Shown here in pieces: positions 28,330-52,303 of a DNA stretch of 64,000 bases. The stretch lies in assembly GCA_041946735.1 (NCBI GenBank), contig JBHGAY010000012.1, positions 32,001 to 96,000 of the forward strand, read 5' to 3'. The notes below the pieces were generated by a model, which saw nothing but the letters and a program-made list of their open reading frames with translations, ran no database searches and was not told the DNA's origin. The DNA comes from Candidatus Eiseniibacteriota bacterium (GTDB taxonomy: Bacteria; Eisenbacteria; RBG-16-71-46; CAIMUX01; VGJL01). The position numbers and the translations under genes are program-made. Numbering within the stretch: position 1 is the first letter of the stretch; each line of letters starts with the position of its first letter.

Positions 28330-28384
28330 GGCCGGGCCGCCGCGTTCCCGCAGGACGCGGGAGCGAAACCAGAAGGGGATTCGC

Positions 28385-28969: not shown

Positions 28970-29039
28970 AATCGGATCGAAGCGCCAGGCGGGCCGGCGT
29001 CCGCCGGCCGGAGTCCTGCAGTCTCCACGGGGGTCTTCG

Positions 29040-31972: not shown

Positions 31973-32045
31973 GAGCCGCTAGCTCAGCCGGTAGAGCACC
32001 TGCCTTTTAAGCAGGACGTGCCGGGTTCGAGTCCCGGGCGGCTCA
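31973..32045 (+). tRNA. tRNA-Lys (anticodon TTT), CCA not encoded
   Basis: Acceptor GAGCCGC/GCGGCTC, GCTCAGCCGGTAGAGC D-arm, CCTGC-CTTTTAA-GCAGG, CCGGG-TTCGAGT-CCCGG. Confidence 0.95.
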
Positions 32046-32556: not shown

Positions 32557-32585
32557 TTGACAGGGCTGGGAGGCCATGTTAGCGT
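32557..32585 (+). promoter_or_regulatory. sigma70 promoter P1 upstream of giant gene
   Basis: TTGACA-17nt-TAGCGT with extended -10 TG. Confidence 0.55.
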
Positions 32586-32729: not shown

Positions 32730-32758
32730 TTGACAGCCCTAGTACCCTGTGGCATAGT
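32730..32758 (+). promoter_or_regulatory. sigma70 promoter P2 upstream of giant gene
   Basis: TTGACA-17nt-CATAGT with extended -10 TG. Confidence 0.6.
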
Positions 32759-33169
32759 GCGCTGCGATCGTGATTCTGCCGTCGTAACGATCTTTGTATC
32801 AATGAGTTGTGGCGCTTGTGCGATGGCACACGAGGGGCGGAGGTGCCTGGACTGATGACTCACAGGCCGAAACGTTCGGAAGTAGGGGCCGGCGTGTTGA
32901 GAAACATTCTCCAGGGGCACCGAGGGGCAAACCGCCCGTCGGGGATTTCTGTTTTTTGCGGGAGGGCGCGCGCGAGACCCGCGCGCGCCGCTCCCTCTTC
33001 TGCTGTCTGGTGCCGATCGGGATCGGACCCTCCCGCGAGGGATTCGGAGAGGTCCCGAACTACAGGGAGGGGCAATCGAGCCGTGAGCGAGCGCTGCGGA
33101 ACCACCGGGGCTGGACGTGAGAGGCCCGGGTTCTTGGGCGGCGTCGTCATTCAAAGGAGGAGATGGGTG

Positions 33170-36100
33170 ATGAGCGGAACAAGGACCAGGACCCTCGTCT
33201 TCGTGACGGCCCTGGTGCTCTGCCTGGTCGCCGGTTTCTCCGGGGCCTTCGCAGATACGCGAGACACGGAGCCGTCGGAAAACCAGGTGATCAACTACCC
33301 GGCCTACCCGGTCGAGCCGCTGGCCGGAGGACAGTATCCGCAAGGTCCTCCGTACATTGTCTCGGCCACGTACAACCCGGAAGGCCCACGGGTCGTGATC
33401 GTCTTCAACGAAGGCGTCAATCCCACGGGAGTCAACCCGGAGGACGTCCTCTCGTCGAACACGTTCGACCTGACGCAGACCGCCTTCGGGAGCGATGACG
33501 GGGACAACGTCCTCTACCTGACGTTCGACACGACCCCCGGCAACGCCGGGTTCGACGACGCGTCGACGGAAATCTTCGCCATGCTGCCGGGCGGGTTCCA
33601 GGACGCGACGCTGATGCGCAACATGGACGTGAGCCCGATCACCGTCGGCGACGGCCCGGTGATCACCAGCGTCACGATCAGTAACCGGCAAAACGATCTG
33701 CAGGGCATCGACGGCCCGGACGACAACCAGGTGGTCGTCACCTTCGACGCCAACGTGCAGCTCGTGGGGACCGACGACGCGGCCTTCGGCTCGACTCTCG
33801 AGTTCAACGGCCAGGCGCTCGACTCCAACGTCGCCGGAAACCAGATCACGATCGGGCTGGCCACGCAGACGGCCGACACCCCGCAGTTCCTGTACATGCA
33901 GCCCGGAGTGATGAATCTCCGGCTGGCGTCGGGAACGGTCCGTTGGGTGGCGAACAACGTCTCGAACAACAAGCTGGTCTTCCGCGCGACCGCGAACGAC
34001 GGACCGCTCCTCGCGGCCGCCTACTGGCGCGACCCGGTCACCGGGGGGAGCGAGGACGCGGACGTCGCGATCGCTTTCGACCAGCCGATCACGAACAATC
34101 TGCCCGCAGACTTCGGGGCGGAGTTCGACGCGGTGCCCGACGAGACGCAGGGGACGGTAACCACCTGGTTCCCGACCTCCTGGACCAACGTCCTGCGGGT
34201 CGGAAGCTTCAGCGCGGGCTTCATCCCCTACGAGAGGATCGCGATCGACACCAACGGCAGCCTGGCAGACTACCAGAACGCCGCTGCGCTCGATCCGGAC
34301 TCGATCGACGTCCACAGGGGTCTCGGGCTCGTTCGCGCGGCGTACAACCGCAACCTGACGCCCACCGACCTGACCGACGACGAGCTCTACCTGTATTTCA
34401 CGGAGCCGATCCAGAACTCAACGGATCTGACGGCGGACAACTTCGACGACTACTTCGACCTCATCGGCTTCTCGATCGGCGACCTGCCGGTTCTGGAGTA
34501 CGTCGAGCCGTCCGGTCCGGACAACTTCTCCGTGGTCATCGTCCGGAACTGGTTCCGGGCGCAGACGGCCAACCCCTGGGAGCAGGGGGACCGGATCATC
34601 GCGAAGGACCCGGGAATCCTCCCGGATCTCGTCGGTAGCATCTCGGGCGGCGGGCTCTGGGTCGGGACGGACGAGTCGACCGAAGGGGTCTACTACCTCC
34701 CGGTCCTCGACGAGTCCCGTCCTATCCAGCTGGCGCTCGAGGACACCCACGAGACGGTCGCCGATGCCTGGACCTTCGACGACACCAATGATACCTACAC
34801 GATCTTCCTCCGCTTCTCCGAGAACAGCGCGAACGGCGCTGCGAACGGCGAGGAAGACAGCGACGAATACTTCCTGTACCCGATCCGCGCCAACGACATG
34901 GCCCTCTGGGACAAGACCCGGATGGCGACCTATCTGCCCGAGGCGATCGCGATCGGGAACCTGAGTCCGCGGCAGGTGGACGGGACGACCCGGTTGGGCG
35001 TCTACGTGTCCGTCGAGGATGTGAATCCCGCAGCTCCTCCGGGGACCATCTTCTCGACGATCGACGGGTTCGACATCACGAGTCCCGGCCAGCTCGCCTT
35101 CCTGCTCGCTGCGGCGGATTGGCAGGGGAACCTCTCCAGGATCGAGACGATCAACCCAGACGAGTACGGCTGGACCTGGCTGCTGCCGCAGCCGGCGAAC
35201 CCGGATCTCCGGGTGTACATCCAGCCGGAGTACTGCTCGCCGGAGTTCCAGGGGAACATCCCGCTCTACGGCGTGCACTTCATCCACGACTACGAAGTGG
35301 ACAGGGTTCGTTTCGAGTACCTGAAGGACGACAACGGCAACGGTTGCGACACCGACGCGGGCGAGACCTGGGAAGAGCTCGTCACCGTCGGCGGCGAGCT
35401 GGCTCCCGCGCAGCGCGGCGACCCGCTCATGTACCGCAACAACACCGACCAGGGCTGCCGGGACGACCTGCGGGCGATGAGCCTCGGGACCTGGTACGCC
35501 TTCGAGTACGACGGGGTCGATGACTACTACTACTACGATGCGGACAACGACCTGATCTACAGCCCGCGCGACATGGTCGTCCGAAGCGACGACGACGTCT
35601 TCGGCAACGGCGACGATCTGGTCGTCATCGGCTCGGACCTCTACGGCGAGTCGGTGCCCGACGGCGCGATCCTCACGGCGTTCGTCTACTACGGCGACCC
35701 GAACGAGAGCGCGACCAACCCGGCCTACTACTGGGCCGAGGCCGACGCCGAGTGCCCGGGCGATCCGATCCTCGCGAGCCAGGGAACCGAGCTCGGGATC
35801 CTCAGCCCGTCCGACTACATCTTCCGCGAGAACCGCGAAGGGTACGTCGACGGCGGCGGCGTCCTGGACCCGACCCTCCAGGGGACCAACCTCTGGACGG
35901 CCAACTGGGCGCCGTGCGAGCTCGACGATCCGGACGGCGAGTACCTCGTGCGGACGATCGCGATCGACCGCTCCGGCAACGAGGACGAGATCCAGGAACA
36001 CTGCTACGACCCGAACGCCTGGAACCCGCTCGAGGTCGAGGCGATCACGGTCGAGTGCGAGCAGAACCTGACGGTCGATCTGACGACCGTCGACGCCTAC

Positions 36101-39100
36101 GTGCCTCGCTGGGACGAAGGAGCCGACGCCTGGACCTACGACGTCGTGACCCTCGACCTGGACACCACGGCGCCGGTCGTCGATCAGCTGCCGCCCAACA
36201 CGCGGTTCTTCAGGATCAACGCCGACGTCGACGCTCCCGACGTGGAGGGAGTCGTCTTCCAGGTCGACACCCCCGACGGAAGCTTCATCGTCGGCCCGAA
36301 CCCGGATGCGGACGTCTACAGCGATCTCGACGCGCTTCCGGGCTACAACTACCAGGCGGGCAACGCCGAGTACCTGGACGACGAGCGCTTCCAGGACGAC
36401 GGCGACTTCGTTTACGAGCCGGGCACGGACACCGTGCTGGATCCCGGCCGTAACGGCGTCGTCGACACTCCTGCGGGACAGCTCCTCATCCCGCTGGTCC
36501 TCGAGGACCTTGGGGACGTCGACCAGGACAACGACGGCAACATCCTCGACAACGGCACCGCGCAGAACGAGATCGACACTGTCGCTCCGTTCACGGCGTG
36601 GTTCGACATGGACGGTTACCAGGCGCCCGGCATCGTGAACTTCACGATTACGGCGACGGCGAACCGGACGGTCGAGAGCTGCCCGGGCGGCGCCCAGGCG
36701 AGCGCCGACAGCGAGGTCATCGAGATCAACAACTGGAGCCGGCCGCTGGTCGACGTGATCCGCGTCGAGGACCAGAACGACGCGGTCATCGACGTGTGGC
36801 ACCCGGTCGCCGATGGCGATCCGTACGGGATCTACCCGACGGAAGCCGGCAGCGAGCGGACCTTCCTGATCCACGTCACGGCCGAGGATCCGGACGGCAT
36901 CCGGTGGGTGCGGCTCTTCTACCGGGCGAACCCGGCCTGCGGCGGCACGCCGACGGTCTGGACGCTCGTGAGCCCCGCCGACGTCGACACCCTCCCCGAC
37001 GGCTCTCCGTGGGATAGCTACCCCGACGTGGACTATCCCTACGAGTTCCACTGGGTGCTGGGCGCTCTCGACGACGCGAACGGCAACTACCAGTTCTACG
37101 CGGAGGCGATGGACGAGGCGGGGAACCTCTCGGGGATCCCGGTCTTCCCGTACGGCTTCGGGTTCAACGAGTACGCGGGACAGGATCTCGCGCACGTCGT
37201 CCCGCTCGCCAACACGGATCACTGCGCTCCCGGTGACACGATCACCGTCGGGGACGAGTACCTGATCACGGCCGAGCTGGCGGATCCGACGCTGGAAGGC
37301 GACGTGCAGGTGCGCTTCTACTACGCTCCGCGCGTAGTCGGCGCAACCTACGCGCCCACCGACATCGACGCCAACAACCGGCTCTATCTGGACTTCTCGA
37401 TCCTCGACCCGACGACGGGCGGCCTCTATGTCTGCGTCAACGGTGTGGAGTACTCCAACGCCAACTACACGGCGAACGCAGGAGATGACTTCATCACCTT
37501 CACGCAGCTTCCGGCCGAGGGATCGACGATCCAGGTGAGCTACAACTTCGTGAGCGCGAACTACCCGGACGGGTGGCTCCCGATCGGCGAGGGCGACGAC
37601 GTCGCTCCGTACACCGTCGAGTGGGAGGAGGGTGTCAATCCTCCGGGCGTGCCCCCGTTCCAGGAGACGATCGACAACGGCCTGCCGGGCTATGACCTGA
37701 TCGCGGTCGCGCTGATCGATGTCGACGGCGACGGCCAGTACGATCCGGGCAGCATGTGCGACGTGATGGAGGCGCTCGCGAGCGAGAACGGCAACCATCG
37801 CGTGATCGTCGAGATCGGCAAGCCGATCGTTCACCTCTACGGTCTCGACTACGAGCCGGACTTCGCGGATGCCCAGTGGCACTACCCGCAGCAGGAGTAC
37901 TGGCCGGGGAACGCCTTCGGCCCGTCGAACGGATACGTGCAGCCCGATGGCGCGGAGAAGAAGCTCTCCGGCGTCGAGTTCGACGTGTTCGTGACGGCAG
38001 CTCCCGAGGACCCGGCGACGATCGATGACGTCCGGCTGGTCATGTTCCACCAGTTCCACGCCGAGCCGTACGACTCGATCGGGATGACGCTGATCGGCGA
38101 GGGTGAAGAGTTCACCATGCCGATCACGATGTACACGCGCGACTACTACGAAGTCCGGCCGGAGGAGATCGAGAACATCACGTTGCACGTGACCGATCTC
38201 GGGACCGGGACGACGACGCAGTACGCGATGGCGCCGGACGACGCGACGGAGCGCAACTACTACCAGGCGACCGCCACGTTCACGACCGGCAAGACGTACA
38301 CGTATCAGTTCTTCATCGACAAGGTCGGCGATGACGACGGCTTCTACCTGGATCGCCGGAACTCCGGTCCGTTCCAGCAGCCTAAGGACGACATCCCCGG
38401 CTACGCGTCGCTCATCGTCACGCCGCCTTCGGACTTCTGGTACGCGCACCTCACGAGCGCGAACTACCAGGAGAACACGATCTATCGCACGAACGTCGAG
38501 GCGATCGACTCCGACGGAGTCATCGGCAGCAACATGTCGGACGGTAGCGGCGACCCGCAGGGGCCGATCGTCTACGTCTACGACACGACGGCGCCGAACA
38601 TCGTCCGTCTCTGGGCCGATCCGATGCTGGTCGGCGTCGCGGACCCGCAGACGACCCTGTGGCTCGAGGCGAACGACGAGCCGAACCTCGACGTCAACGT
38701 GATCACGACGCGGACCGTCGTGTTCCAGTACAGCCCGCTCGAGACGCCGGACGAGTGGATCACGATCGGGATCGACACGACCTACGAGGACGGCTGGTTC
38801 ATGCCGTGGACCGTCCCCAACCCGATCAGCGATCTCTACGACAACGACGGCGACGGGCAGGTGGACGAGGACGACGAGCTGCTCGCGGACTACCCGGTCC
38901 GTGCGGTGGTCTTCGACGATGCCGGGTACTATCACGACCCGTTCGTCGTGGGCTTCCCGGGCTCGGGCAACCCGAGCTACGCCAGCTCGATCATCGTCCA
39001 GTTCGACGCGTTCCCGCCGTACACGCACATCATCGATCCGCATGACGGGACGGTCTTCCCGTATGGAACGACGATCCCGGTGACCGGGGTCGCCAACGAC

Positions 39101-42100
39101 ACGCCTCCCGAGGCGGCCGTGGCGACCGGCGTCGACTTCGTCCGGTTCCAGTACAAGGACGGCCAGAACCTCTGGGTCGAGAACGGCACGGCTCCGTACT
39201 ACACGCACGGGACCGACTTCGTCTTCCGCGACGAGAACGGCAACGAGCAGTACGACGACGGAGTCGACGTGGTCCTGTTCCAGCCGACGGGCACGGCGCC
39301 CGGCGACTTCAACGGCCAGGCGGGGAACCTCTGGTTCGACATCGACCCGACGGTGAACGACAACACCGACGAGCCGATCATCCAGGCGGATGCGCCGGAT
39401 CAGACGGAGTTCTCCATCGACTTCGATACGCGGCAGGTCTGGGGTACGGAGGATCTCTACGTCCGTCTCCGGATGCTGGCGACCGACATGGCCGGCAACG
39501 AGACGATCCAGGACGACCTCCATGCCGAGGAGATCGTCATCATCCTCAACGACATCACCGCGCCGACCGCCTACCTGCAGTGGATGTCGCGGCCTTGCGA
39601 GCCGACCTGCGCCGTTCTGAGCGGCGACGAGGTCGAGGGAACCAAGGGCGCGGTCACCCTCTACGGAACGGTCCTCGATCCGACCGGCGGCCTCGAGCAC
39701 GTGGTCGCGGTCGACATCGAGATCCGGGCCGAGGGCGACACCGACTGGACGGTCCTCGGTCGCGATCAGACTCCGTTCGACGCCGAGCCGTGCGCCGACG
39801 TTCCGGATCCCAACGGGACGTTCGGGTACTTCGCGCAGGCGTGGAACACCGACGAGTATCCCGAGGGCGTGTACGAAGTCCGCGCGGTTGCGGTCGACGA
39901 CGACGGCAACCGTGACGAGGAAGGCGCCCTCATCGTCCGGGTGAACGTGGACCGTACGCCGCCGAGCGTGAACTACGCGGCGACGGAAGGCTTCCCCGGC
40001 TTCATCGAGGGGATGGCGGAGTACCAGAACGACGGCGATCCTGACAGTCCGTCGTTCGTGATCGTCCGCGATCCCGATACCGGCGACGTCGAGTTCCGGG
40101 TCTACACGACCGACCCGGACGTCCAGACGATGACGCTGCAGTGGCGCTACCCGAGCGACCCGCTCGGCCTGTGGCGGCCCTGGAGCGAGGCGTTCAACGA
40201 GTTCAACAATGCGGATCGTCGGCTCTTCACCGACTTCCAGTACGAGCCGGCCCAGAACTTCGATGACGCCTTCGTCTGGATCGCGCACGCGGAGGACTTC
40301 TTCTACGAGACCGAGCCCGGCCTGGCGGACTACCTCATCAAGAGCACGTTCGTCCAGGGTCCGGTCGAGTGGCGCGTCCTCGCGACCGACTCGGCCTGCA
40401 ACACGAACTCCGGCCAGACCGACTTCGTGACGGCGACCGTCGACCTCACCTGCCCCAGCGTCTGGGACTACGCGGTCGACAAGCCGACCCGGATCGTCGT
40501 GCCTGGCGAGGAGATGAACTTCACCGTGTTCCTGAAGGACGCCGAGAGCGACGTCCGGACGGTCACGCTCCTGGGCGTTACGGATCCCGGAACGCCGGAC
40601 GAGCATCGCTACGTCATCGCGACGGGCGAGCTGCTCCCGGTCGTCGAGGGCGAGAACGTCTTCGATCTCGGTGGGCCGAACACGCAGTGGAAGTTCACCG
40701 CGACCTGGGCGTTCCCGGACGTCGTCTACAAGGACACCCCGCTTGAGATCTGGGTGGTCCGCGGCGACGTCGCCGGCAACACCTGCGGCGAGAACGAGCG
40801 GATCGATCTGATCACGGTCCAGGACCTCGTTCCGCCGGACAACACGAAGATCGTCTACATCGCCGGCCAGGTCGCCTTGAGCGACGACCCGGCGGACTCG
40901 GTCGCCTACGACGGTGGCCTGCCCGAGCTGCTCGAGAACGACAACGTCTGGGTGAACCGCGATGGCGGCCTCATCTACACGCCGTTCGGCGGCAACGGCG
41001 ACAACGACGACTACCTGGTCAGCGAAGGCTGGACGCCCGGTGTCGAGAACAACACCGAGGCGGACATCTTCACGCTGGGTGACGAGCTGGCAACCTATCC
41101 GCGCGAAGTGAACGAGGGGTACATGGGCAACCCGGCGGCCAACCCGCCGCGCGTCGCTCGTCTCGTGACCCTCGTCGCCCGCACCTGGGCGGATGACCAG
41201 AGCTTCGGCGCAGCGGACGACGGGATCGCGAAGGTGATCTTCCTCGTCCGTCCGTTCGGCGAGACTCAGGCCGACACCCTGTCGAAGGACGAGTACCAGC
41301 CGTTCTACCCGCTCTATCTGTGGCACGCCTTCTGGAACACGCAGGCGACGCTCGATGACGGCGTCACCCCGATCTATCCGGACGGCGACTACGAGATCGC
41401 GGCGTACGGCGTCGACTCCTCCGGCAACGTCGAGGACACGGCGGCTCTCGAGTGGACCCGGGTCACGGTGGACAACACCCCGCCGGTCGCCACGATGGAC
41501 GCCGATCCGACGACGGAGACGGTCGAGCAGACCCCGACTCCGATCGACATCGAGCGGAACAGCGCGTTCCTGCTCTTCGCCCGGATCCTGCCGGAGAACC
41601 CGATCAACGACGACGCGGCGACCTTCTTCTTCAAGAGGACGCGCGATCTGAACATGGCGGGGAGCTGGCTGCAGATCCCGGCGGTCGACGATCCGAACAC
41701 TCCGATCAACGAGAACTGGGCGCGCGGTCCCGAGGACGGCAATCCCGACGACACGCGTCCGTACAGCTTCAACCTCGATCTCGGGAAGTCGATGGATCCC
41801 GTGGACTTCCTGCACTGGCTGAACGATCCGAACACCGCGCCGAAGCCCGGCCCGCTGCACGTCGGCGAGCAGTATGACTTCGTCGCGGCGGCGTCCGACC
41901 TGCTGGGGAACACCACCTCGCACCTCGACGCCTTCGCCGACAGCCTGTGGGTCCGGATCCGGATCGTCGACACGATCGCTCCGATCATGACCATCACGGC
42001 CGTGGAGCGGAACATCGGTCAGACCGACCGGATCGAGAACCCGGATCAGGTCCATGCCCAGTCGTTCGCCTACCTCGAGGCCAAGAACCTCGACGGCATG

Positions 42101-45100
42101 ACCGACCTGGACGACGTCTTCTTCGTCTATCGCCCGCAGGGCGGGACGGACTGGACGCTCCTCGACGGCACGCTCGAAGAGCTCGGGGACGGCAGCTGGC
42201 AGATCGGTCCGTGGGATCTCGCGGCTCTCGAGCACAACGCGTGGTACGAGGTGGCGGCGATTGGCGTCGACGACGTCGGCAACCAGTCCGACCCGAGCGA
42301 CGACGCGACGCCGAAGCTCCTCGTCTACGTCGACTACGAGGCGCCGGACAACTACGCCTTCACGCACCCGGCGATCGACGCGACCGACCTCTGCGACTGG
42401 TACACCGGTGGGCTGCAGGGCGTGAAGCTCTACGACCTCGCGGTTGCGGACGCGGATGACGTCGAGAACGTCGACACGTGGGACATCGTTTTCGAGTACA
42501 AGCCGAGCTCGGCGATCGACGAGCCGGGCAACTGGACGACCGTGCCGACGGGCGGCGAGAACCTCCCGGATCACCCGGTCATCCATGACGACGGCACGAA
42601 CAGCTGGTGGCAGAAGTGGGAGATCCAGGATCTGAGCACCGACCTCTACGACATCCGCGCGACCATCGAGGATGTCGCCGGGAACGTGTCGGTCCTCGGT
42701 CTCACCCGCCTCGGCTACGACAACGACGAGCCGACCGACGTCGCGATCAGCCGGATCGAGACGGTCGAGGGCGGCGACATCGAGTTCCATCCGGACGGCC
42801 TGACCGACATCGCGGCGGGGACCGTCGTCCGGGTCTGCGCTTCCGCGAAGGACGACGAACTGAACCTGCCCGAGGACCGGGAGACCGGCGTCGCGCAGTT
42901 CGTGTTCGAGGCGTCCCGCGACGGTGGCGTGACCTGGTACGACCTCGGTCTCGCCGAGGCGGCTCAGGACGCAAACGACCCGACCGACTACACCGCTTGC
43001 CTCGACTGGAACACCACGGGCCTGGCTCCGGGGACTCTCCTCTGGGTCGGCGTCACGGCGGTGGACGAGTGCGGCAACGACAGCGGCCGGATCATCTACC
43101 AGATGCGGATCAGCGACATCATCCCGCCGACGGCCCGGATCGTCTGCTTCGACCCGGATCAGCAGCCGCACGGCGAGAATCCGCCGACCTGTGTCAAGAT
43201 CTACGCCCTCGCGGAGTCCGATCCGGACATCGCCGGCGTGATCTTCCAGTACGACACGGTTGACGGGGACGAGAACCACGAGTGGGTGAACATCGGAGTG
43301 GGCGAGCCGGTCAGCGGTGTGAACGGCGGCGGCGCGCCGACCACCGAGGTCCTGTGGTGGGCGTCTCTCCAGACGACCTCCCTCGACCCGGCCGTCACCC
43401 AGTACTGGCTGCGGGCGATCGCGAAGGACGAGGTCGGGAACCAGTACGGCGATTCGCCGGACGAGGTCGTCCCGATGATGCTCGCCTCTCTCGTGACCCT
43501 GCCGGACGGCTCGATGACCTTCGAGCCGGCCCGTACGACCACCCATGCGGTCGATAACGTCTCGGTCCAGGTCGAGAGCGCGACGCGCGTCATCCTCACC
43601 GTGAAGATGGCGGACAGCGTCGAGCGTCCTCGCGTGGTCGTGCTCGCGGAGCAGCCGTACCTCGAGTCCGGCGACTTCTGCCTGCACAACAACGAGGCGT
43701 GGATCTACTCGGCCGGCACCGACGGCGACTACAACCTGCTCCGGTCCAACGACGACCCGACGGTCTGGCGCGGCGAGATCCATCTGGAAGCGGAAGGCTG
43801 CTACCAGTATTCGATCTGCGTGACCGGTACGGACGAAGGCCTCCTCGTCGACCACGTCGGCGTGGCGGTCAACCAGTACCCGGTCTCGGCTGCGCTCGGA
43901 ACGAACGGCACCGTCGTGACGCCGGGCTATGAGGACCTCGAGAGCCGCGTGACGATCGTCTCCGGCGCCATCGAGGGTGAGGATTGCCTGCTCGTCAGCC
44001 CGACCCTCCCGCCGACGCTCGACCAGGACCAGGCGGTCTACCTGGAGCCGGTCGCGGACTCGGCGTGGCACATCGAGCTGATCGGCGGCAACTTCTCCGA
44101 CTTCGCAACCGGGTATCACCCGACCGTGGTCATCGCCTACGACCAGGCGGCCGTCGATGCGGCGCTCGCCGGTAGCAACGGCGCGGTGACCGAGGACATG
44201 CTGACCGTCCGCCGCTGGAACCCGGACACGGGTAGCTGGTCGGGCAACGGAATCAGCGCCATCCGGGTCAACACGGAAGCGAACACGATCAGCTTCGCCG
44301 TCGACAACCTGTCGTCGGCTCTCGACTGCATCAACGACCTGCTGAAGAGCGACGGCGAGGGCGGCTCGAGCTGCTCCGAGGGGAACATCTTCCAGGTGTT
44401 CGCTCCGAAGAGCGCGGCGCCGGTCTTCGTCTACAGCTTCTTCCCGCACAGCGCCTATCTGAGCGACTGGTGGACCGACGCCGACCCGATCGTCAGCGCC
44501 TACTTGAACGATCTCGGCGGACAGGGCATCGACCCGACCACAGTGAAGGTCCTGATCGACGGCCGTATCGTGGCGAACATGTTCCCCGCGGGCGGCGGAG
44601 AGGCGGACTACTTCTGGGGCGAGGGCCATGCCGAGATCTGGGCGGCGAACGAGGAAGGCACCGTCTGGGAGCTCGAGTACACGCACTCCCGTCTGCAGCG
44701 TGACTGGCTGACGGAGGGACAGCACACCTTCACGGTCCAGTACCGCTCGTACGGGACGTCGGACGAGACGAGCGTCGACACTCCGTTCTTCGTCGACCTC
44801 ACCGCTCCGCAGCTCGCGTTCCACGGCGGCTGGATCGGCAACCCGCTGCTCCAGAACCTGGCCGGCTACATCGACGGTGGTCCGAACTCGATTCTGACCG
44901 TCTCGATGTACGACGGCGGCTCCGGTATCTTCGTCCGGCCCGAGCGGCAGGAGTTCCTGCCGGACCTCGACTGCGATGAGTACATCGACAGCGAGGACCT
45001 CTACGAGGAGCCGGTCTGGACGCCCGATAGCGGCTGCTGGCAGGCGGTCGACTTCGGGATCAAGTACGACCTCTGGCTGGTCCATTACGAGGACGACCAG

Positions 45101-46105
45101 CACGACATCGACGAGTTCGAAGAGAGGGTTCTGCTGCACCAGGGCACGGCGGACGAGATCCTGCCGTACCTGCAGCCGGCTCTCTACGGAACGGGCGAGA
45201 CCTACGATCCGACCGACACGCTGCTGGTCAGACTGCCGATCGTCGGCGGCGGCCGGATCCAGGAAGGGGACATCCTCGAGGTCACCGTCTACACGTTGAA
45301 GCACATCACGTCCGACGGTCCCGGCTTCGGCTGCGACTTTGCGGACACGGTGGGCATCGGTGACACGAACCTCCTGCTGCAGAACTGCTGGTTCGATTGG
45401 TCTGCAGAGGAGCTGCATGTCTACGACATGGGTGTTCTCGATCAGGTGCGGAACAGCGGAAGCAAGTTCATCGAGCAGCGGTTCGTTGTCGACATGCTGC
45501 CGCCCGCCTGCACCATCGTCCTGCCGGGCGCGACGCAGGATCCGAACCAGGACATGATCATCGATGTCACGGTCTCGGATCTCGGCGTCGGTCTCGATGT
45601 GACGAACCCGACGGTCCGAGTGGTCGGTCCCGACGGCTCTCAGATCGCGGTCCAGAACCTCGTGGTCACGGGCAACCGGATCACGGGCAAGGTCCCCGCG
45701 CCTCTGCAGACCGGCGAGTACACGATCACCGTGACCGCGTCGGATCGTCTCGGGCATGTCTGCACGACGACGAAGACGGTCCGGGTCGAAGCGGCTCAGC
45801 TCACCCTGACCGAGGCGTACAGCTACCCGAACCCGTTCGATCCTGGTCATGGCGACGTCGTCCTGAACTTCGCCGTGAGCAAGACGAGCGACGTGACCAT
45901 CAAGGTCTATGACTTCGCCGGCAACTTCGTGACGAACATCGCGACCAACCGTCAGGTGCACCCCGGTGATGCTCCCATCACCTGGGGCGGCACCAACTCG
46001 GAAGGCCAGCCGCTGGCGAATGGCGCTTACATCGTCCGTGTCGTCGCCACTGACGGCGCTCGGACGGAGCAGGCGAACCTCAAGGTGGTCATCTGGAGGG
46101 AGTAG
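33170..46105 (+). CDS. Giant (~4311 aa) secreted acidic Ig-like repeat surface protein with C-terminal FlgD-Ig/T9SS type A-like sorting domain
   Basis: AGGAGG RBS; signal peptide MSGTRTRTLVFVTALVLCLVAGFSGAFA; recurring xxDxxGN and D-x-x-[AP]-P Ig-boundary motifs; DxDxDG-type Ca motifs; C-terminal YSYPNPF...IKVYDFAGNFV...WGGTNSEGQPLANGAYIVRV. Confidence 0.88.
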   Translation: MSGTRTRTLVFVTALVLCLVAGFSGAFADTRDTEPSENQVINYPAYPVEPLAGGQYPQGPPYIVSATYNPEGPRVVIVFNEGVNPTGVNPEDVLSSNTFDLTQTAFGSDDGDNVLYLTFDTTPGNAGFDDASTEIFAMLPGGFQDATLMRNMDVSPITVGDGPVITSVTISNRQNDLQGIDGPDDNQVVVTFDANVQLVGTDDAAFGSTLEFNGQALDSNVAGNQITIGLATQTADTPQFLYMQPGVMNLRLASGTVRWVANNVSNNKLVFRATANDGPLLAAAYWRDPVTGGSEDADVAIAFDQPITNNLPADFGAEFDAVPDETQGTVTTWFPTSWTNVLRVGSFSAGFIPYERIAIDTNGSLADYQNAAALDPDSIDVHRGLGLVRAAYNRNLTPTDLTDDELYLYFTEPIQNSTDLTADNFDDYFDLIGFSIGDLPVLEYVEPSGPDNFSVVIVRNWFRAQTANPWEQGDRIIAKDPGILPDLVGSISGGGLWVGTDESTEGVYYLPVLDESRPIQLALEDTHETVADAWTFDDTNDTYTIFLRFSENSANGAANGEEDSDEYFLYPIRANDMALWDKTRMATYLPEAIAIGNLSPRQVDGTTRLGVYVSVEDVNPAAPPGTIFSTIDGFDITSPGQLAFLLAAADWQGNLSRIETINPDEYGWTWLLPQPANPDLRVYIQPEYCSPEFQGNIPLYGVHFIHDYEVDRVRFEYLKDDNGNGCDTDAGETWEELVTVGGELAPAQRGDPLMYRNNTDQGCRDDLRAMSLGTWYAFEYDGVDDYYYYDADNDLIYSPRDMVVRSDDDVFGNGDDLVVIGSDLYGESVPDGAILTAFVYYGDPNESATNPAYYWAEADAECPGDPILASQGTELGILSPSDYIFRENREGYVDGGGVLDPTLQGTNLWTANWAPCELDDPDGEYLVRTIAIDRSGNEDEIQEHCYDPNAWNPLEVEAITVECEQNLTVDLTTVDAYVPRWDEGADAWTYDVVTLDLDTTAPVVDQLPPNTRFFRINADVDAPDVEGVVFQVDTPDGSFIVGPNPDADVYSDLDALPGYNYQAGNAEYLDDERFQDDGDFVYEPGTDTVLDPGRNGVVDTPAGQLLIPLVLEDLGDVDQDNDGNILDNGTAQNEIDTVAPFTAWFDMDGYQAPGIVNFTITATANRTVESCPGGAQASADSEVIEINNWSRPLVDVIRVEDQNDAVIDVWHPVADGDPYGIYPTEAGSERTFLIHVTAEDPDGIRWVRLFYRANPACGGTPTVWTLVSPADVDTLPDGSPWDSYPDVDYPYEFHWVLGALDDANGNYQFYAEAMDEAGNLSGIPVFPYGFGFNEYAGQDLAHVVPLANTDHCAPGDTITVGDEYLITAELADPTLEGDVQVRFYYAPRVVGATYAPTDIDANNRLYLDFSILDPTTGGLYVCVNGVEYSNANYTANAGDDFITFTQLPAEGSTIQVSYNFVSANYPDGWLPIGEGDDVAPYTVEWEEGVNPPGVPPFQETIDNGLPGYDLIAVALIDVDGDGQYDPGSMCDVMEALASENGNHRVIVEIGKPIVHLYGLDYEPDFADAQWHYPQQEYWPGNAFGPSNGYVQPDGAEKKLSGVEFDVFVTAAPEDPATIDDVRLVMFHQFHAEPYDSIGMTLIGEGEEFTMPITMYTRDYYEVRPEEIENITLHVTDLGTGTTTQYAMAPDDATERNYYQATATFTTGKTYTYQFFIDKVGDDDGFYLDRRNSGPFQQPKDDIPGYASLIVTPPSDFWYAHLTSANYQENTIYRTNVEAIDSDGVIGSNMSDGSGDPQGPIVYVYDTTAPNIVRLWADPMLVGVADPQTTLWLEANDEPNLDVNVITTRTVVFQYSPLETPDEWITIGIDTTYEDGWFMPWTVPNPISDLYDNDGDGQVDEDDELLADYPVRAVVFDDAGYYHDPFVVGFPGSGNPSYASSIIVQFDAFPPYTHIIDPHDGTVFPYGTTIPVTGVANDTPPEAAVATGVDFVRFQYKDGQNLWVENGTAPYYTHGTDFVFRDENGNEQYDDGVDVVLFQPTGTAPGDFNGQAGNLWFDIDPTVNDNTDEPIIQADAPDQTEFSIDFDTRQVWGTEDLYVRLRMLATDMAGNETIQDDLHAEEIVIILNDITAPTAYLQWMSRPCEPTCAVLSGDEVEGTKGAVTLYGTVLDPTGGLEHVVAVDIEIRAEGDTDWTVLGRDQTPFDAEPCADVPDPNGTFGYFAQAWNTDEYPEGVYEVRAVAVDDDGNRDEEGALIVRVNVDRTPPSVNYAATEGFPGFIEGMAEYQNDGDPDSPSFVIVRDPDTGDVEFRVYTTDPDVQTMTLQWRYPSDPLGLWRPWSEAFNEFNNADRRLFTDFQYEPAQNFDDAFVWIAHAEDFFYETEPGLADYLIKSTFVQGPVEWRVLATDSACNTNSGQTDFVTATVDLTCPSVWDYAVDKPTRIVVPGEEMNFTVFLKDAESDVRTVTLLGVTDPGTPDEHRYVIATGELLPVVEGENVFDLGGPNTQWKFTATWAFPDVVYKDTPLEIWVVRGDVAGNTCGENERIDLITVQDLVPPDNTKIVYIAGQVALSDDPADSVAYDGGLPELLENDNVWVNRDGGLIYTPFGGNGDNDDYLVSEGWTPGVENNTEADIFTLGDELATYPREVNEGYMGNPAANPPRVARLVTLVARTWADDQSFGAADDGIAKVIFLVRPFGETQADTLSKDEYQPFYPLYLWHAFWNTQATLDDGVTPIYPDGDYEIAAYGVDSSGNVEDTAALEWTRVTVDNTPPVATMDADPTTETVEQTPTPIDIERNSAFLLFARILPENPINDDAATFFFKRTRDLNMAGSWLQIPAVDDPNTPINENWARGPEDGNPDDTRPYSFNLDLGKSMDPVDFLHWLNDPNTAPKPGPLHVGEQYDFVAAASDLLGNTTSHLDAFADSLWVRIRIVDTIAPIMTITAVERNIGQTDRIENPDQVHAQSFAYLEAKNLDGMTDLDDVFFVYRPQGGTDWTLLDGTLEELGDGSWQIGPWDLAALEHNAWYEVAAIGVDDVGNQSDPSDDATPKLLVYVDYEAPDNYAFTHPAIDATDLCDWYTGGLQGVKLYDLAVADADDVENVDTWDIVFEYKPSSAIDEPGNWTTVPTGGENLPDHPVIHDDGTNSWWQKWEIQDLSTDLYDIRATIEDVAGNVSVLGLTRLGYDNDEPTDVAISRIETVEGGDIEFHPDGLTDIAAGTVVRVCASAKDDELNLPEDRETGVAQFVFEASRDGGVTWYDLGLAEAAQDANDPTDYTACLDWNTTGLAPGTLLWVGVTAVDECGNDSGRIIYQMRISDIIPPTARIVCFDPDQQPHGENPPTCVKIYALAESDPDIAGVIFQYDTVDGDENHEWVNIGVGEPVSGVNGGGAPTTEVLWWASLQTTSLDPAVTQYWLRAIAKDEVGNQYGDSPDEVVPMMLASLVTLPDGSMTFEPARTTTHAVDNVSVQVESATRVILTVKMADSVERPRVVVLAEQPYLESGDFCLHNNEAWIYSAGTDGDYNLLRSNDDPTVWRGEIHLEAEGCYQYSICVTGTDEGLLVDHVGVAVNQYPVSAALGTNGTVVTPGYEDLESRVTIVSGAIEGEDCLLVSPTLPPTLDQDQAVYLEPVADSAWHIELIGGNFSDFATGYHPTVVIAYDQAAVDAALAGSNGAVTEDMLTVRRWNPDTGSWSGNGISAIRVNTEANTISFAVDNLSSALDCINDLLKSDGEGGSSCSEGNIFQVFAPKSAAPVFVYSFFPHSAYLSDWWTDADPIVSAYLNDLGGQGIDPTTVKVLIDGRIVANMFPAGGGEADYFWGEGHAEIWAANEEGTVWELEYTHSRLQRDWLTEGQHTFTVQYRSYGTSDETSVDTPFFVDLTAPQLAFHGGWIGNPLLQNLAGYIDGGPNSILTVSMYDGGSGIFVRPERQEFLPDLDCDEYIDSEDLYEEPVWTPDSGCWQAVDFGIKYDLWLVHYEDDQHDIDEFEERVLLHQGTADEILPYLQPALYGTGETYDPTDTLLVRLPIVGGGRIQEGDILEVTVYTLKHITSDGPGFGCDFADTVGIGDTNLLLQNCWFDWSAEELHVYDMGVLDQVRNSGSKFIEQRFVVDMLPPACTIVLPGATQDPNQDMIIDVTVSDLGVGLDVTNPTVRVVGPDGSQIAVQNLVVTGNRITGKVPAPLQTGEYTITVTASDRLGHVCTTTKTVRVEAAQLTLTEAYSYPNPFDPGHGDVVLNFAVSKTSDVTIKVYDFAGNFVTNIATNRQVHPGDAPITWGGTNSEGQPLANGAYIVRVVATDGARTEQANLKVVIWRE

Positions 46106-46110
46106 CGGGT

Positions 46111-46150
46111 GAGAAGGCGGGGGGAGGACCCTTCCTCCCCCCGCGATCTC
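46111..46150 (+). terminator. Strong intercistronic hairpin (partial terminator or mRNA stabiliser)
   Basis: GCGGGGGGAGGA-CCCT-TCCTCCCCCCGC 12-bp stem, no U-tract. Confidence 0.55.
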
Positions 46151-46205
46151 GCATCTTCGACTTCGGACGAGTGAACGACGACGGGTTCAACAAGGAGGTA
46201 AGGAC

Positions 46206-47837
46206 ATGGTGAGTCTGAAGCGAGGAACGATCCTGACCCTCGTGGTCTTGACGGGATCGATCCTCCTCACTGGGCTCGCGTGGGCCGCCAGCGACAGCAA
46301 CGGGAACCATAATGCTCCCTACCTGCGCATGGGCGTCGGTGCACGGGCCCTGGGAATGGGGGGCGCCTACGTCGCGGTCGCCAACGACCTGACGGCAGGC
46401 TACTGGAACCCGGCCGGCCTCGCCTGGACCAACGGATGGCAGGTCGGCGGGATGTTCTCGAGCGGAATGGACGTCGATCGGAAGTACAACCAGATCGGCG
46501 CGTCGTATGGCGGAAGCTGGGGCGCGATCGGGTTCAACTGGCTCAACGCCGGCATGACCGACATTCCCCAGCGCAACGCGACGGGCGGGGACATGGGCAC
46601 GTTCGACTTCTCGGACAATGCCTTCATGCTCTCGCTTGCGAAGGGTTTCGATATCGCGTCCTTTGGGATCACCGGCAAGTACCTGCGTGAGGGGCTCGAC
46701 GCGAACATTCCGGGCGACGACAACGTCAACGGGTACGGAATCGACCTCGGTTTCGGCCTCGCTCTGATGGATCAGGTGCGCCTCGGGTTCGCGGTGCAGG
46801 ACATCGCCGGGTCGCTGGGCAACGCGGACGAAGACGAAGTCGACGACATCCCCACGAACCTGCGCGCCGGCCTGATGGTCGGGCCGATTCCGGGGCTGAC
46901 GGCGGCGTTCGACGTCGAGAAGACCCAGGACGACGACGACTACAAGTTCCATCTTGGCGGCGAGTACCGGATGCCTCTCTCCGAGGACTTCGGTGCCGCG
47001 GTCCGGCTGGGGCTCAACGACGGGGAGTTCGCGGCGGGGTTCGGGCTGAAGTTCCGGTTCCTCGAGGCGGACTACGCGTACGTCAACGACCAGCAGGACT
47101 TCCTGAACGAGAACCATCGCTTCTCCGTCGCCCTGAAGTTCGGCGAGGAGGAGATGATGATGACCGGTCCGGGGGCGATGCGCGACACCGATCGGGACGG
47201 GATCCCCGATGACGTGGATCAGTGCCCGACGCTCGCGGAAGACCTCGACGGCTTCATGGACAACGACGGCTGCCCCGACCCGGACAACGACGGCGACGGC
47301 ATCCCGGACATCAATGACAACTGCCCGAACCAGGCGGAAGACATGGATGGCTGGCAGGACGCCGACGGTTGCCCGGACGTCGACAACGACGGCGACGGCA
47401 TCCTCGACAAGGACGACAAGTGCCCGAACGTCGCCGAGGACGTCAACGGCTACCAGGACGACGACGGCTGCCCGGACGGCGGGCAGGCGAACGCGGGGAT
47501 CCCGGTTCTCGCATACATCAACTTCAAGTACGACAGCGCGGAGATCAGCGGCGCCGATCCGATCCCGGTCCTCGAGGACGTGGCTCGGATCATGCGGGAG
47601 CGCCCCGATCTGCGGCTGAAGATCACGGGACACACCGACTCGACCGGCAGCGACCAGTACAACATGAAGCTGTCGATGCGCCGGGCCGATGCGATCAAGG
47701 ACTATCTGGTCAAGAGGGGCGTGTCTGCGGACCGGATGGTCACCGAGGGGAAGGGCGAGAGCCAGCCGGTGGATACGAACGACACCGATCTCGGCCGCGC
47801 CCGCAACCGCCGGATCGAGTTCCAGGTCCTGCAATAG
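46206..47837 (+). CDS. PorV/PorQ-like beta-barrel fused to thrombospondin type-3 repeats and an OmpA-like peptidoglycan-binding domain
   Basis: Signal peptide; YLRMGVGARALGMGGAYVAVANDLTAGYWNPAGLA (PorV/FadL-type N-terminus); HRFSVALKF barrel end; DxDxDGIxDxxDxCP repeats; GHTDSTG...LSMRRA...GRARNRRIEF. Confidence 0.88.
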   Translation: MVSLKRGTILTLVVLTGSILLTGLAWAASDSNGNHNAPYLRMGVGARALGMGGAYVAVANDLTAGYWNPAGLAWTNGWQVGGMFSSGMDVDRKYNQIGASYGGSWGAIGFNWLNAGMTDIPQRNATGGDMGTFDFSDNAFMLSLAKGFDIASFGITGKYLREGLDANIPGDDNVNGYGIDLGFGLALMDQVRLGFAVQDIAGSLGNADEDEVDDIPTNLRAGLMVGPIPGLTAAFDVEKTQDDDDYKFHLGGEYRMPLSEDFGAAVRLGLNDGEFAAGFGLKFRFLEADYAYVNDQQDFLNENHRFSVALKFGEEEMMMTGPGAMRDTDRDGIPDDVDQCPTLAEDLDGFMDNDGCPDPDNDGDGIPDINDNCPNQAEDMDGWQDADGCPDVDNDGDGILDKDDKCPNVAEDVNGYQDDDGCPDGGQANAGIPVLAYINFKYDSAEISGADPIPVLEDVARIMRERPDLRLKITGHTDSTGSDQYNMKLSMRRADAIKDYLVKRGVSADRMVTEGKGESQPVDTNDTDLGRARNRRIEFQVLQ

Positions 47838-48162: not shown

Positions 48163-48558
48163 ATGCAACTGCGGGCGGATCCGAAGTCGAGCGGCAAGGC
48201 CCGGCAGGGTGGCTTCACCCTGATCGAGCTCGTCATCGTCGTCACCATCCTCGGGATTCTCGCGTCGCTCGCGGTTCCGAACTACATGCGGGCACGCGAG
48301 CGCGCCCGGCGAGCCTCGTGCTTCTCCAACCAGAGTCATCTGCTGCTGGCGGGCTCCCTCTACGCCGCCGACCACAAGGTCTGGAACGAGGTGGTCAACA
48401 GCGGCACCCTCTGGACCCTGGGTTACGTCGGCGAGAGATGCGGCGACTGCCCCGACGACCTGGTGGAGAACGAGGGCGACTACGACGTGACGATCGCCGA
48501 CGGTCAGCCGATCTCGGTGCAATGCCTGGTCAATCCGGCGGAGCATCAGCTTCACTAG
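48163..48558 (+). CDS. Type IV pilin/pseudopilin-like protein
   Basis: Class III signal G|FTLIELVIVVTILGILASLAVPNY with E5; Cys residues in the globular part. Confidence 0.85.
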   Translation: MQLRADPKSSGKARQGGFTLIELVIVVTILGILASLAVPNYMRARERARRASCFSNQSHLLLAGSLYAADHKVWNEVVNSGTLWTLGYVGERCGDCPDDLVENEGDYDVTIADGQPISVQCLVNPAEHQLH

Positions 48559-49122: not shown

Positions 49123-50334
49123 ATGCGCCGGGCGCTCGCGCTCGCCGCGCGCGGCCGCGGTCTCGTCTCCCCGAACCCCGCCGTCGGGGCCGTGCTGCTC
49201 GACGGAGAGCGGATCGTCGCGGAGGGGCACCACCGCCGTTTCGGAGGCCCCCATGCAGAAGCCGCGCTGCTCGACCAACTCGAAGGCGGACCGCCGGTCC
49301 GGCCTTCCGCCGTCCTGCTCGTGACACTCGAGCCTTGCTCCCACAAGGGGAAGACCGCCCCCTGCGTCGATCGTCTCCTCGCCTCGCCGATCCGCCGCTT
49401 CGTCGTCGCGACGTCCGACCCCAATCCGCTGGTGTCGGGACGGGGCATTCGCGCGCTCCGAGCGGACGGAAGGGAAGTTCGCGTGGGGCTCGAAGAGGAT
49501 CGCGCCCGCGGCTTGAACCTTCCTTTCTTCCTCGCCCAAAGGGAAGGCCGGGCGATGGTGACGCTGAAGATCGCATCGACTCTCGATGGAAAGGTTGCGG
49601 ATCGCGGCGGCGGCTCGCGATGGATCACCTCGCCCGCCTCGCGCGCGCTCGTCTCGCGGCTGCGCTCGCACGCCGACGCGATCGTGATCGGCCATGGCAC
49701 CGCTCGCCGGGACGATCCGCGGCTCGTCGTCCACGGAGACCCACGCCGCACCCCCACGCGAATCCTCCTCGATTCGCGACTCGCTTCCGACCCGGATCTG
49801 AAGCTCGCCCGGCTGTGGAGGAGGCAGGTGGCCGGTCGAACGGGGGACGCCTCTTCGCCCGACCGGCGGGGAAACTGGATCCAGGTCGAGGATCGTGCGG
49901 CGGGGCCGGCGCTCCGCTGGCGTTTCGAGCCGCGCCTGATCGCCGTCGGCGCCGAGCCCACGGCCGCCCGGATCCGCAGCTTCCGGCGCGCGGGGTGGGA
50001 AGTGTGGCTCCTGCCCGACCGGAGCGGCCGGCGGGTCGATCTCGCGAGGCTCGGGCGCGCGGCGGCGCGGGCCGGTCTGCTCGACCTCCTCGTCGAAGGG
50101 GGGCCGCGACTTTCCGCCGCTTTCCTCGAGGACGGCCCTCTCGATCGCCTCCTTCTCTTCCTCGCCCCTCGCGTTCTCGGCCCCGGGCTCGGTTGGAGCG
50201 ACGCCTGTCCGCCCCGGGAGATCTCCGCTTCGCGCACCCTGGTCGCGGCCGCTCCTCCACGACGGATCGGCGGCGGCGACCTCCTCCTCGATCTCGTTCC
50301 GGGCGGCCCGGTCCGTTCCCGGGCGACGGGATAG
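49123..50334 (+). CDS. ribD: Bifunctional riboflavin deaminase/reductase
   Basis: SPNPAVGAV, HAE, TLEPCSHKGKTAPC, SRWIT, LLVEGG; true start may be upstream. Confidence 0.93.
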   Translation: MRRALALAARGRGLVSPNPAVGAVLLDGERIVAEGHHRRFGGPHAEAALLDQLEGGPPVRPSAVLLVTLEPCSHKGKTAPCVDRLLASPIRRFVVATSDPNPLVSGRGIRALRADGREVRVGLEEDRARGLNLPFFLAQREGRAMVTLKIASTLDGKVADRGGGSRWITSPASRALVSRLRSHADAIVIGHGTARRDDPRLVVHGDPRRTPTRILLDSRLASDPDLKLARLWRRQVAGRTGDASSPDRRGNWIQVEDRAAGPALRWRFEPRLIAVGAEPTAARIRSFRRAGWEVWLLPDRSGRRVDLARLGRAAARAGLLDLLVEGGPRLSAAFLEDGPLDRLLLFLAPRVLGPGLGWSDACPPREISASRTLVAAAPPRRIGGGDLLLDLVPGGPVRSRATG

Positions 50335-50412
50335 ACGGGCGGCGCCGCGGGAAGCGGGGTCCGGCGGGCGGTCCGATACGCTACAGTCTTCGGAAGCGAG
50401 AGGGGCGATGCG

Positions 50413-51024
50413 ATGTTCACGGGACTCGTGGAGGGGGTCGGAGAGGTCGTCGGAGTCCGGGGCGCAGGAGGCGTTCGGGAGCTAGCGATCCGCAGTCCCT
50501 TCCCGAAGGCCGATCTGGTCGCCGGGGCTTCCATCGCGGTGCATGGCGTCTGCCTGACTCTCGTCGAAAGCGGCGGGGACGACGGAGTCTTCCGGGTGCA
50601 AGCGGGGCGGGAGACGCTCCGCCGTTCGGTTCTCCGGGGATTGCGCGTCGGCTCGCTCGTTCACCTCGAGCGCGCGCTCGCCGCCGGTGACCGGCTCGGC
50701 GGCCACATCGTCCAGGGACACGTGGACGGGATCGGACGGATCGCTCGGGTGCAGCGCGGGGGAGGCGAAACGGTCCTCGACGTGGCCGCGGCACCGGAGA
50801 TCCTCCGCTACCTCGTCGAGAAGGGTTCGGTGACGGTCGACGGAGTGAGCCTCACCGTCGGCCGCGTCGGCGCCCGCGCCTTCCGGGTGCACGTCATTCC
50901 CAAGACCGCCGAGACGACGCTGCTCGCCCGCTACCGGCCGGGACGGCGGGTGAACCTGGAGGCGGATATACTCGCCAAGTACGTCGAGGCGCTGCTGCGG
51001 GCGAGGGATCGGAGCGGTGCGTGA
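50413..51024 (+). CDS. ribE: Riboflavin synthase (alpha chain)
   Basis: [49 protein letters not shown]. Confidence 0.95.
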
Positions 51025-51073
51025 GCGAGAGCACGGTCGACCGGGGCGGAGCCGGATCGATTCGGGGGGAAGC

Positions 51074-52303
51074 ATGAGCGTTCGCGAAGATCCGGTCTTC
51101 TGCAGCGTGGAGGAGGCGGTCGCCGAGATCCGCGCGGGCCGGATGCTGATCGTGGTGGACGACGAGGACCGCGAGAACGAGGGAGACCTGATCATGGCGG
51201 CGGAGAAGATCACGCCGCAATCGGTGAACTTCCTCGCGCGCTATGGACGCGGACTGATCTGCGTCCCGATGCAGGAGGAGCGCCTGAACGCGCTCGACCT
51301 TCCGCCGATGGTCCGCACGAACACCGCGAAGCTCGGCACTCCATTCACCGTCAGCGTCGACGCGGTCCACAACACGACGACCGGCATCTCCGCCTTCGAC
51401 CGCGCGCACACGATCCGCACCCTGATCGATCCGCACACGCGCCCGGAGGATCTCGCCCGCCCGGGCCACGTCTTTCCGCTGATCGCCGCCAAAGGCGGAG
51501 TGCTTCGGCGCGCCGGCCACACCGAGGCGACGGTCGACCTCGCGATCCTGGCCGGCCTGTATCCGGCGGGCGTCCTTTGCGAAATCCTCAACGAGGATGG
51601 GACGATGGCCCGCCTTCCCGAGCTGAAGCGGATGGCGGAGGAGCACGGCCTGCGGATCCTCTCGATCGGCTCGCTGATCGAGTACCGCCGCCGCACGGAA
51701 CATCTCGTCCGCCGGATCGTCGAGGCCGACCTGCCGACGGCGCACGGAGACTTCCGTCTCGTCCTCTTCGAAAGCATCCTGGACGGCGATCATCACGTCG
51801 CGATGGTGAAGGGGGAGATCCATCCGGAGGAGCCGGTCCTCGTCCGGGTGCACTCGCAGTGCTTGACGGGGGACGTCCTCGACAGCCGCCGGTGCGACTG
51901 CGGCGAGCAGAAGGAGCTCGCGCTCTCCGCGATCGCCGCCGCCGGCGCGGGGGTCTTCCTCTACATGAGGCAGGAGGGGCGCGGAATCGGCCTCGCGAAC
52001 AAGATTCGCGCCTACCATCTGCAGGACATCGGGCTCGACACCGTGGAGGCGAACGTCTCGCTTGGCTTCCAGCCCGACGAGCGGGACTTCGGGATCGGCG
52101 CGCAGATCCTCGCGGATCTCGGCGTCGGGAAGATCCGTTTGCTCACGAACAACCCGCGCAAACGCGTCGGGCTCGCCGCCCACGGCCTGTCGATCGTCGA
52201 GCTTGTGCCGATCGAGGCTCCGCCGAATCCGGAGAACCGGCACTACCTCGACACCAAGAGGCGGAAGATGGGACATATCCTCCGCATCGACGCCGAAGGA
52301 TGA
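51074..52303 (+). CDS. ribBA: Bifunctional DHBP synthase / GTP cyclohydrolase II
   Basis: [48 protein letters not shown]. Confidence 0.96.

Follow-up and report, generated by a model that had tools for sequence, protein, structure and literature searches.

The question posed by this locus is how a secreted protein of nearly half a megadalton might be held at the surface of a Candidatus Eiseniibacteriota bacterium, and whether the gene that directly follows it, encoding an outer membrane barrel fused through a TSP3 spacer to an OmpA-C domain, provides the holder. The stretch of DNA analysed, hereafter the window, is 64,000 nucleotides long, and the features of interest within it are listed in Table 1. 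The favoured answer, with a probability of about 0.62, is that the fusion protein acts as the dedicated carrier of this giant and then as its private, presumably permanent, socket and anchor.

Table 1. Coordinates of the features of the giant/fusion gene pair, as positions in the window
Feature	Position	Strand	Details and basis
Second, upstream TTGACA promoter-like site	32557..32585	+	consensus match only
Near-consensus sigma-70-type promoter, TTGACA-17-TG-CATAGT	32730..32758	+	~410 nt before the giant's ATG; consensus match only
Giant acidic secreted protein, putative cargo	33170..46105	+	ATG 33170, 4,311 aa, 472 kDa, signal peptide, Ig-like modules
Type A CTD of the giant, ending KVVIWRE	45788..46105	+	TIGR04183 profile match
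GC-rich hairpin directly 3' of the giant's stop, without U-tract in this genome	46109..46152	+	z -4.5
Ribosome-binding site of the fusion gene, AAGGAGG	46192..46198	+	8 nt before ATG
Fusion gene (signal peptide, PorV/PorQ-family barrel, TSP3 spacer, OmpA-C)	46206..47837	+	543 aa, P0001
Sec signal peptide	46206..46286	+	basic N-region, hydrophobic stretch, ...AWA; read by eye from sequence
N-terminal plug and 14-stranded FadL/PorV-type barrel (residues 28-316)	46287..47153	+	profile match, AlphaFold2 model
Three 33-residue TSP3-type units, six Cys	47184..47477	+	periplasmic by strand count
OmpA-C peptidoglycan-binding domain, D478/N486/R493	47511..47834	+	Pfam OmpA, ligand residues

The reading frames are real, with orthologues sharing 50-77% identity present throughout the order. 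The signal peptide, modelled as a helix at residues 8-19, contains no cysteine, hence the protein is not a lipoprotein. Its barrel scores above the cut-off of the NCBIfam PorV family model NF033709 (103.3 bits against 90, residues 36-312), a model matched by 28/28 barrels of the clade (E <= 0.001), and the AlphaFold2 model of the protein (81-row alignment, mean pLDDT 83.9) predicts 14 strands within residues 77-312 along with N-terminal plug helices. This rules out a classical eight-stranded barrel of the OmpA or OprF type and agrees with an earlier note on this DNA, which had proposed a PorV/PorQ-type barrel followed by calcium-binding repeats and an OmpA-C domain. The closest folds found by VIA-align are PorV chains (8gl6_F, Z 31.6, rmsd 4.0, 286 residues aligned; then 6h3i_F, Z 31.5, rmsd 3.4, 279 aligned), below which FadL-family barrels rank at Z 26-30, i.e. 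1.5-5 Z units lower. The proposed OmpA-C domain is recovered by Pfam OmpA (PF00691; 83.3 bits, cut-off 27.2, residues 440-535). Its residues D478, N486 and R493 are spaced as are Asp576, Asn584 and Arg591 of PorE, which are described as binding peptidoglycan (PMC7192894), and are invariant in 62/62 alignment rows that bear the domain, the other 19 of the 81 rows lacking it. An OmpA motif is found in 72 of the 119 barrel homologues listed, and those homologues with a name are mostly from Candidatus Eisenbacteria, which suggests a source outside the Bacteroidota. The number of repeats, put by the earlier note at six to eight, is sustained at its low end if calcium-site motifs are counted: the spacer matches Pfam TSP_3 (28.2, cut-off 25), with DxDxDGI at residues 327, 360 and 393 and a second acidic motif at 346, 379 and 412, giving six such motifs, all within only three exact 33-residue units, and six cysteines lie within 340-422. 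The number of units, and with it the length of the spacer, differs between homologues.

The giant gene ends at 46105 and the fusion gene begins at 46206, leaving the gap of 100 nt originally described, and the mass of the giant from the ATG at 33170, 472 kDa, bears out the estimate of more than 450 kDa. Most of this protein yields only hints of Ig-like modules, whether with Pfam and NCBIfam profiles or in the ESM Atlas, in which a search with residues 2011-3943 returned only leads below 0.9. Its last 105 residues, scanned alone, match the type A CTD model TIGR04183 (29 bits, cut-off 23), as do the CTDs of 19/20 orthologues of the giant, whereas the type B model TIGR04131 finds a weak match in 2/20. 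The CTD also resembles the C-termini of the PorU models (20/20 orthologues) and PorZ models (16/20). The CTDs of PorU and PorZ themselves are described as staying uncleaved in PMC11285876, a study that was unable to define what renders a CTD uncleavable. Run against the giant's own genome, the profile of its CTD gives 146 bits for the giant and no more than 54 for any other open reading frame.

An interface between this CTD and the barrel, as the earlier note had expected, is predicted by modelling of the complex, which gave 0.93 in each of three runs against 0.00 for the highest-scoring of three controls. The mark used for such scores, which this model passes, was reached by 116/157 solved complexes and 2/215 mismatched pairs, and is a rough guide for alignments built independently, as here. 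The runs share at least 94% of contacts, with a partner pLDDT of 92, and place the CTD against the plug and extracellular loops L1-L4 and L7, by strand count opposite to the OmpA end. From the CTD the predicted contacts draw on the C-terminal strand with its invariant Lys and on a YDFAG loop. The CTD's Lys is likewise reported among PorV-RemZ contacts (PMC10994853), and the loop is taken to be the beta3-beta4 motif found essential in PMC11285876. Because PorV-CTD complexes have already been solved (8GL6), the score may reflect likeness to these structures, and the specificity of the barrel for this particular CTD is presumed. Conservation of the residues at the predicted interface barely exceeds that of the barrel as a whole (0.67 against 0.65).

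The genome in question encodes a type IX secretion system (T9SS), with SprA (493 bits, cut-off 200), PorU (596, cut-off 420), eight PorV_fam matches above cut-off and at least 150 FlgD-type CTD matches (255 by a profile built for this work); SprA is reported across the FCB phyla (PMC12611786). No match to PorP (PF11751) was detected in the fusion protein or elsewhere in the genome, in comparison with 11 in a Flavobacteriales control genome, two loci of which (L165 and L154 of G151) show the arrangement already known, with a PorP gene directly behind the gene of a type B-like CTD protein. GldM was not found in the genome of interest, which is 94.8% complete, although it was found in the Flavobacteriales positive control, and models for GldL and GldN, for which no such control was run, also had no match there. 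By contrast, PorU was matched in 61/61 genomes of the class that were searched, 50 of them above cut-off. This weakens the earlier suggestion of anchoring without PorU/A-LPS sortase chemistry, and an absence of PorU can be rejected. With PorU present the giant would instead have to bypass the sortase or escape cleavage, and its CTD is presumed to do so.

The ubiquity of PorU is also what lends weight to the idea that the barrel is a dedicated but transient carrier, extracting the giant from SprA and then either handing it to PorU for cleavage and linkage to LPS or releasing it, the OmpA-C domain merely positioning the barrel. Release or LPS linkage is described as the normal fate of type A cargo (PMC12635249). 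In a single-sequence model, however, only four residues separate the last Ig strand of the giant from the first strand of its CTD. Furthermore, the CTD is the best conserved 100-residue window in the last 1,500 residues of the giant (0.49 against 0.27-0.47), and a carrier that cycled would be expected to gain little from being fixed to the wall. Within this genome the linker preceding the CTD points the same way, most CTD proteins having one rich in A/G/D/E/P (median flexible fraction 0.61, against 0.22 for the giant, which ranked 1 of 185). Outside this genome the metric failed, with medians of 0.17 for 25 barrel-adjacent CTDs and 0.00 for 15 controls (p 0.96), in a test that dropped 12/37 adjacent and 3/18 control CTDs that had no usable PNP anchor. 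Several of the controls lie near barrels, and the metric was devised after the data had been seen. The metric is accordingly excluded from the support for retention, and the failure of the outside test favours transient carriage. On balance, transient carriage seems unlikely.

The surroundings of the gene pair bear on how the two proteins might be expressed. Promoter-like sites precede the giant in 11/16 loci scanned, in tandem in 9/16; in the window a leader of approximately 410 nt separates the site at 32730 from the start codon (32730-33169). The hairpin behind the giant's stop is kept in shape, though not in letters, in 19/19 orthologues (median z -3.1), and could either stabilise the message of the giant or partly terminate transcription. 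A tRNA-Lys(UUU) gene (31973-32046) precedes the operon in the window, and a tRNA-Lys precedes 10/18 fused loci (L037, L042, L044, L045, L047-L051 and L151), some of the others perhaps being too short to include it; the recurrence suggests that the pair occupies a fixed place in the chromosome. The flanks are ordinary, with trigger factor, ClpX and purA upstream (27025-31925) and the riboflavin genes ribD and ribBA downstream (49123-52303). Between these and the fusion gene lies a small type IV pilin-like gene with an N-methyl motif (48163-48558), 325 nt downstream of the fusion gene, and the hairpins in that interval carry no U-tract. Three metatranscriptomes from one study contained 5-7% of the words. 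In RNA runs, contigs from relatives of this strain span the intergenic region (45940-46294, 45930-46176 and 46077-46339); these were set aside as evidence, because contigs cannot prove a single transcript and may derive from DNA.

Several of these features would also suit a giant that associates with itself in an S-layer-like lattice or canopy, the fusion protein then being a rivet, present in sub-stoichiometric amounts, by which this layer is fastened to the wall. Tandem near-consensus promoters, the fixed site behind tRNA-Lys and a hairpin that might yield more message for the giant than for the barrel would all be in keeping with such a layer, as would the acidity of the giant (D+E 17%, K 1%) and its presence as a single copy in most genomes. 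Conversely, the matches of the giant in Pfam and NCBIfam include no S-layer family, and its codon bias does not stand out (rank 186 of 2,384), although against a weak seven-gene reference this says little about high expression. Each giant would also need a carrier in order to leave SprA, meaning that surplus copies would require another route, and several genomes of the order that are close to complete (G011, G015 and G018) yielded no such pair. The formation of such a lattice is consequently considered improbable.

The association of the two genes across genomes is close. The C-terminus of the giant lies directly upstream of the fusion gene in 28 of 29 loci from other genomes, with a gap between the genes of typically 90-128 nt. 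The exception has no DNA upstream of the barrel, and a frameshift affects the G004 locus, which is counted among the 28. Where the loci are longer, 19/20 contain an orthologous giant, the remaining one being a 35%-identical fusion behind a different cargo of 1,093 aa. A survey of 151 genomes of the class detected the giant in 36, the barrel clade in 38 and both in 35, while both went undetected in 112 at the thresholds used; all 35 intact barrels of the clade adjoin an orthologue of the giant, lying directly behind it and in the same direction. G004 retains a giant with a broken barrel, and three genomes have an unfused sister barrel instead. These counts include kin, which are not independent, and adjacent genes can be lost together, or missed together in assemblies, and so the linkage to CTD cargo predicted by the earlier note shows that the pair is conserved rather than that its members bind. 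That the fusion protein is a general OmpA-like tether between outer membrane and wall, lying beside the giant only for co-expression, is very improbable: its TSP3 and OmpA-C part shares 41% identity with the periplasmic region of Capnocytophaga OmpA (5wtl), and the same module is found behind several barrel types, but one would not expect a general tether to be absent from 112/151 genomes or to be confined, when intact, to the neighbourhood of the giant (35/35), the predicted CTD interface beat its controls, and unfused sister barrels likewise follow large CTD proteins.

Related barrels extend the comparison beyond the fused clade. A set of 80 homologous barrels in GTDB genomes comprises 11 that are fused and 69 that are unfused. 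All ten fused homologues with sufficient upstream DNA follow a giant; eight appear to repeat genomes already counted. A CTD protein precedes 37/69 of the unfused barrels, in Zixibacteria, Ignavibacteria, Calditrichaeota, Elusimicrobia and others. The 69 include one barrel with an internal stop and another that is truncated where its contig ends. Three sister barrels (L148:7968-16901, L149:1105-9921 and L150:582-9509) follow CTD proteins of 2,939-2,978 aa belonging to one family (f18). One of these proteins shows weak similarity to the giant (23% over 822 aa, E 4e-6). No OmpA match lies within 17 kb of the three barrels, and it follows from such pairs that the OmpA-C tether is not needed for pairing. 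Unfused sister-clade barrels were also seen behind CTD proteins of at least 1,939 aa at two further loci (L077 and L080). In a quick tree the fused and unfused clades group at an open fork, apart from the other paralogues of the genome under study. Some of those paralogues also adjoin CTD-like proteins (L058:8396-14928, L061:6042-13223, L063:5904-10679, L059:7567-11942 and L062:4690-9940); two of these paralogues sit behind TonB-dependent receptors, and one paralogue barrel forms the C-terminus of an open frame of 1,199 aa. The 35%-identical barrel-TSP3-OmpA fusion mentioned above (L055:13168-18122, G039) has a long branch and follows an FG-GAP/DUF11 protein, which suggests that the design serves other cargos too. 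A candidate for a second pairing of cargo and OmpA fusion (L066) was discarded, as it encodes a lipoprotein with no barrel.

In the favoured scheme of a dedicated carrier that becomes a private anchor, the two genes would be co-transcribed from the promoters upstream of the giant. The giant would cross the inner membrane via Sec and, judging from its CTD and the presence of sprA, would exit through the SprA translocon by means of that type A CTD, to be picked up by this PorV paralogue rather than by the general carrier. The CTD would then stay bound and presumably uncleaved on the extracellular loops of the barrel, as placed there by the complex model. A count of 14 strands puts the C-terminus of the fusion protein in the periplasm, so that the TSP3 units would reach to the wall, where the OmpA-C domain, by analogy with PorE, would grip the peptidoglycan stem peptide non-covalently. 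The outcome would be a surface protein that stays in place, fastened across the outer membrane to the wall, with the functions of PorP and PorE combined in one chain and applied to a type A cargo.

A wider picture can be drawn only tentatively. It is of a T9SS outside the Bacteroidota that is equipped with SprA, PorU and an enlarged PorV family yet lacks any recognisable GldL/M/N motor or PorP, in which private PorV paralogues permanently retain selected type A cargos, and in which the largest cargo of Eisenbacteria (4,300-6,300 aa) is riveted down by a wall-bound paralogue as a constitutive canopy or fibre layer. If this were true, private, retaining PorV paralogues would break the rule that type A cargos use a general carrier and are cleaved, and the barrel partner rather than the class of the CTD would decide the fate of the cargo. 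The matched CTD-barrel pairs described here also supply material for asking what protects a CTD from cleavage and what restricts it to one carrier.

The anchoring idea of the earlier note came through the three tests named there, on the type of barrel, the CTD interface and the linkage to cargo, but its suggestion of an undescribed system is not borne out. A scheme with the same function, in which a type B cargo is held by PorP/SprF and PorE, has been published: in Porphyromonas gingivalis, PorE, PorP and PG1035 are reported to form a complex without PorU or PorV and with the CTD intact (PMC9143113), and in Flavobacterium johnsoniae five operons of cargo, SprF-like and PorE-like genes are described, among them the precedent Fjoh_3952/3951/3950, with static anchoring of one CTD (PMC12618676). 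The published division (PMC12635249) is that type A cargos use the general PorV and are then cleaved, whereas type B cargos have a private PorP/SprF and are retained, in some cases with PorE fixing them to the wall. Like these operons, the present locus has a cargo gene followed directly by a gene for its own 14-stranded barrel, a CTD that is probably retained, an OmpA-C domain to grip the wall and a static anchor at the surface as the likely result. The differences are that the CTD is here of type A (TIGR04183), that the barrel belongs to the PorV/PorQ family and has no PF11751 match, and that the OmpA-C domain is fused through TSP3 units rather than carried by a separate TPR/propeller PorE lipoprotein; the PorE model NF052230 matches the OmpA part only (64 bits, cut-off 600).

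The PorV-PorU and PorQ-PorZ pairs of the T9SS attachment complex, and the PorV-CTD structures 8GL6 and 6H3I, share with the giant and its barrel the barrel family and fold, a type A-like CTD that is not removed, as is presumed for the giant, and contacts, here predicted, through the C-terminal Lys strand and the extracellular loops. In the present case, however, the partner is a 472-kDa non-enzymatic protein, and neither PorV nor PorQ has a wall-binding domain. The affinity of CTDs for PorV has been suggested to fall outside SprA (PMC10994853), a point against lasting retention. The fusion barrel lies well below the orthologue cut-offs of PorV (NF033710, 39.6 against 250 bits) and PorQ (NF033711, 28.1 against 220), as do the scanned PorV paralogues of the same genome for NF033710 (best 123.6). 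The nearest ESM Atlas clusters (69, 146 and 103 members; 0.93-0.94) are Bacteroidota proteins of approximately 550 aa with the same string of domains and a T9SS carrier-type barrel, although one of the PorP/SprF rather than the PorV family. They are known by database annotation only, no paper on them having been found. Myxococcus TraB offers a comparable layout of barrel, TSP3 and OmpA-C, and is proposed both to hold a surface protein, TraA, and to anchor in peptidoglycan. TraA, by contrast, bears a MYXO-CTERM tag rather than a T9SS CTD, and the pair functions in outer membrane exchange (PMC12045341); the TraB model NF033763 matches the fusion protein best at residues 380-542, in the TSP3/OmpA part only (154.4 bits, cut-off 700).

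Together with the widespread pairs of CTD cargo and unfused PorV-like barrel, these precedents place the locus within a known anchoring scheme. No PorV-OmpA fusion was named in the titles and abstract openings found, though supplementary operon tables of T9SS surveys could mention one, and a search on Eisenbacteria, secretion and T9SS, thin in its coverage of subscription journals, returned nothing. What sets the locus apart is the combination of a type A CTD, a PorV-family barrel, a fused tether and a cargo of half a megadalton. The fusion can be read as a Rosetta-stone case backing the PorP-PorE model of anchoring, and the wall-binding barrel is most likely a one-protein version of that known three-protein scheme for attachment to the wall.
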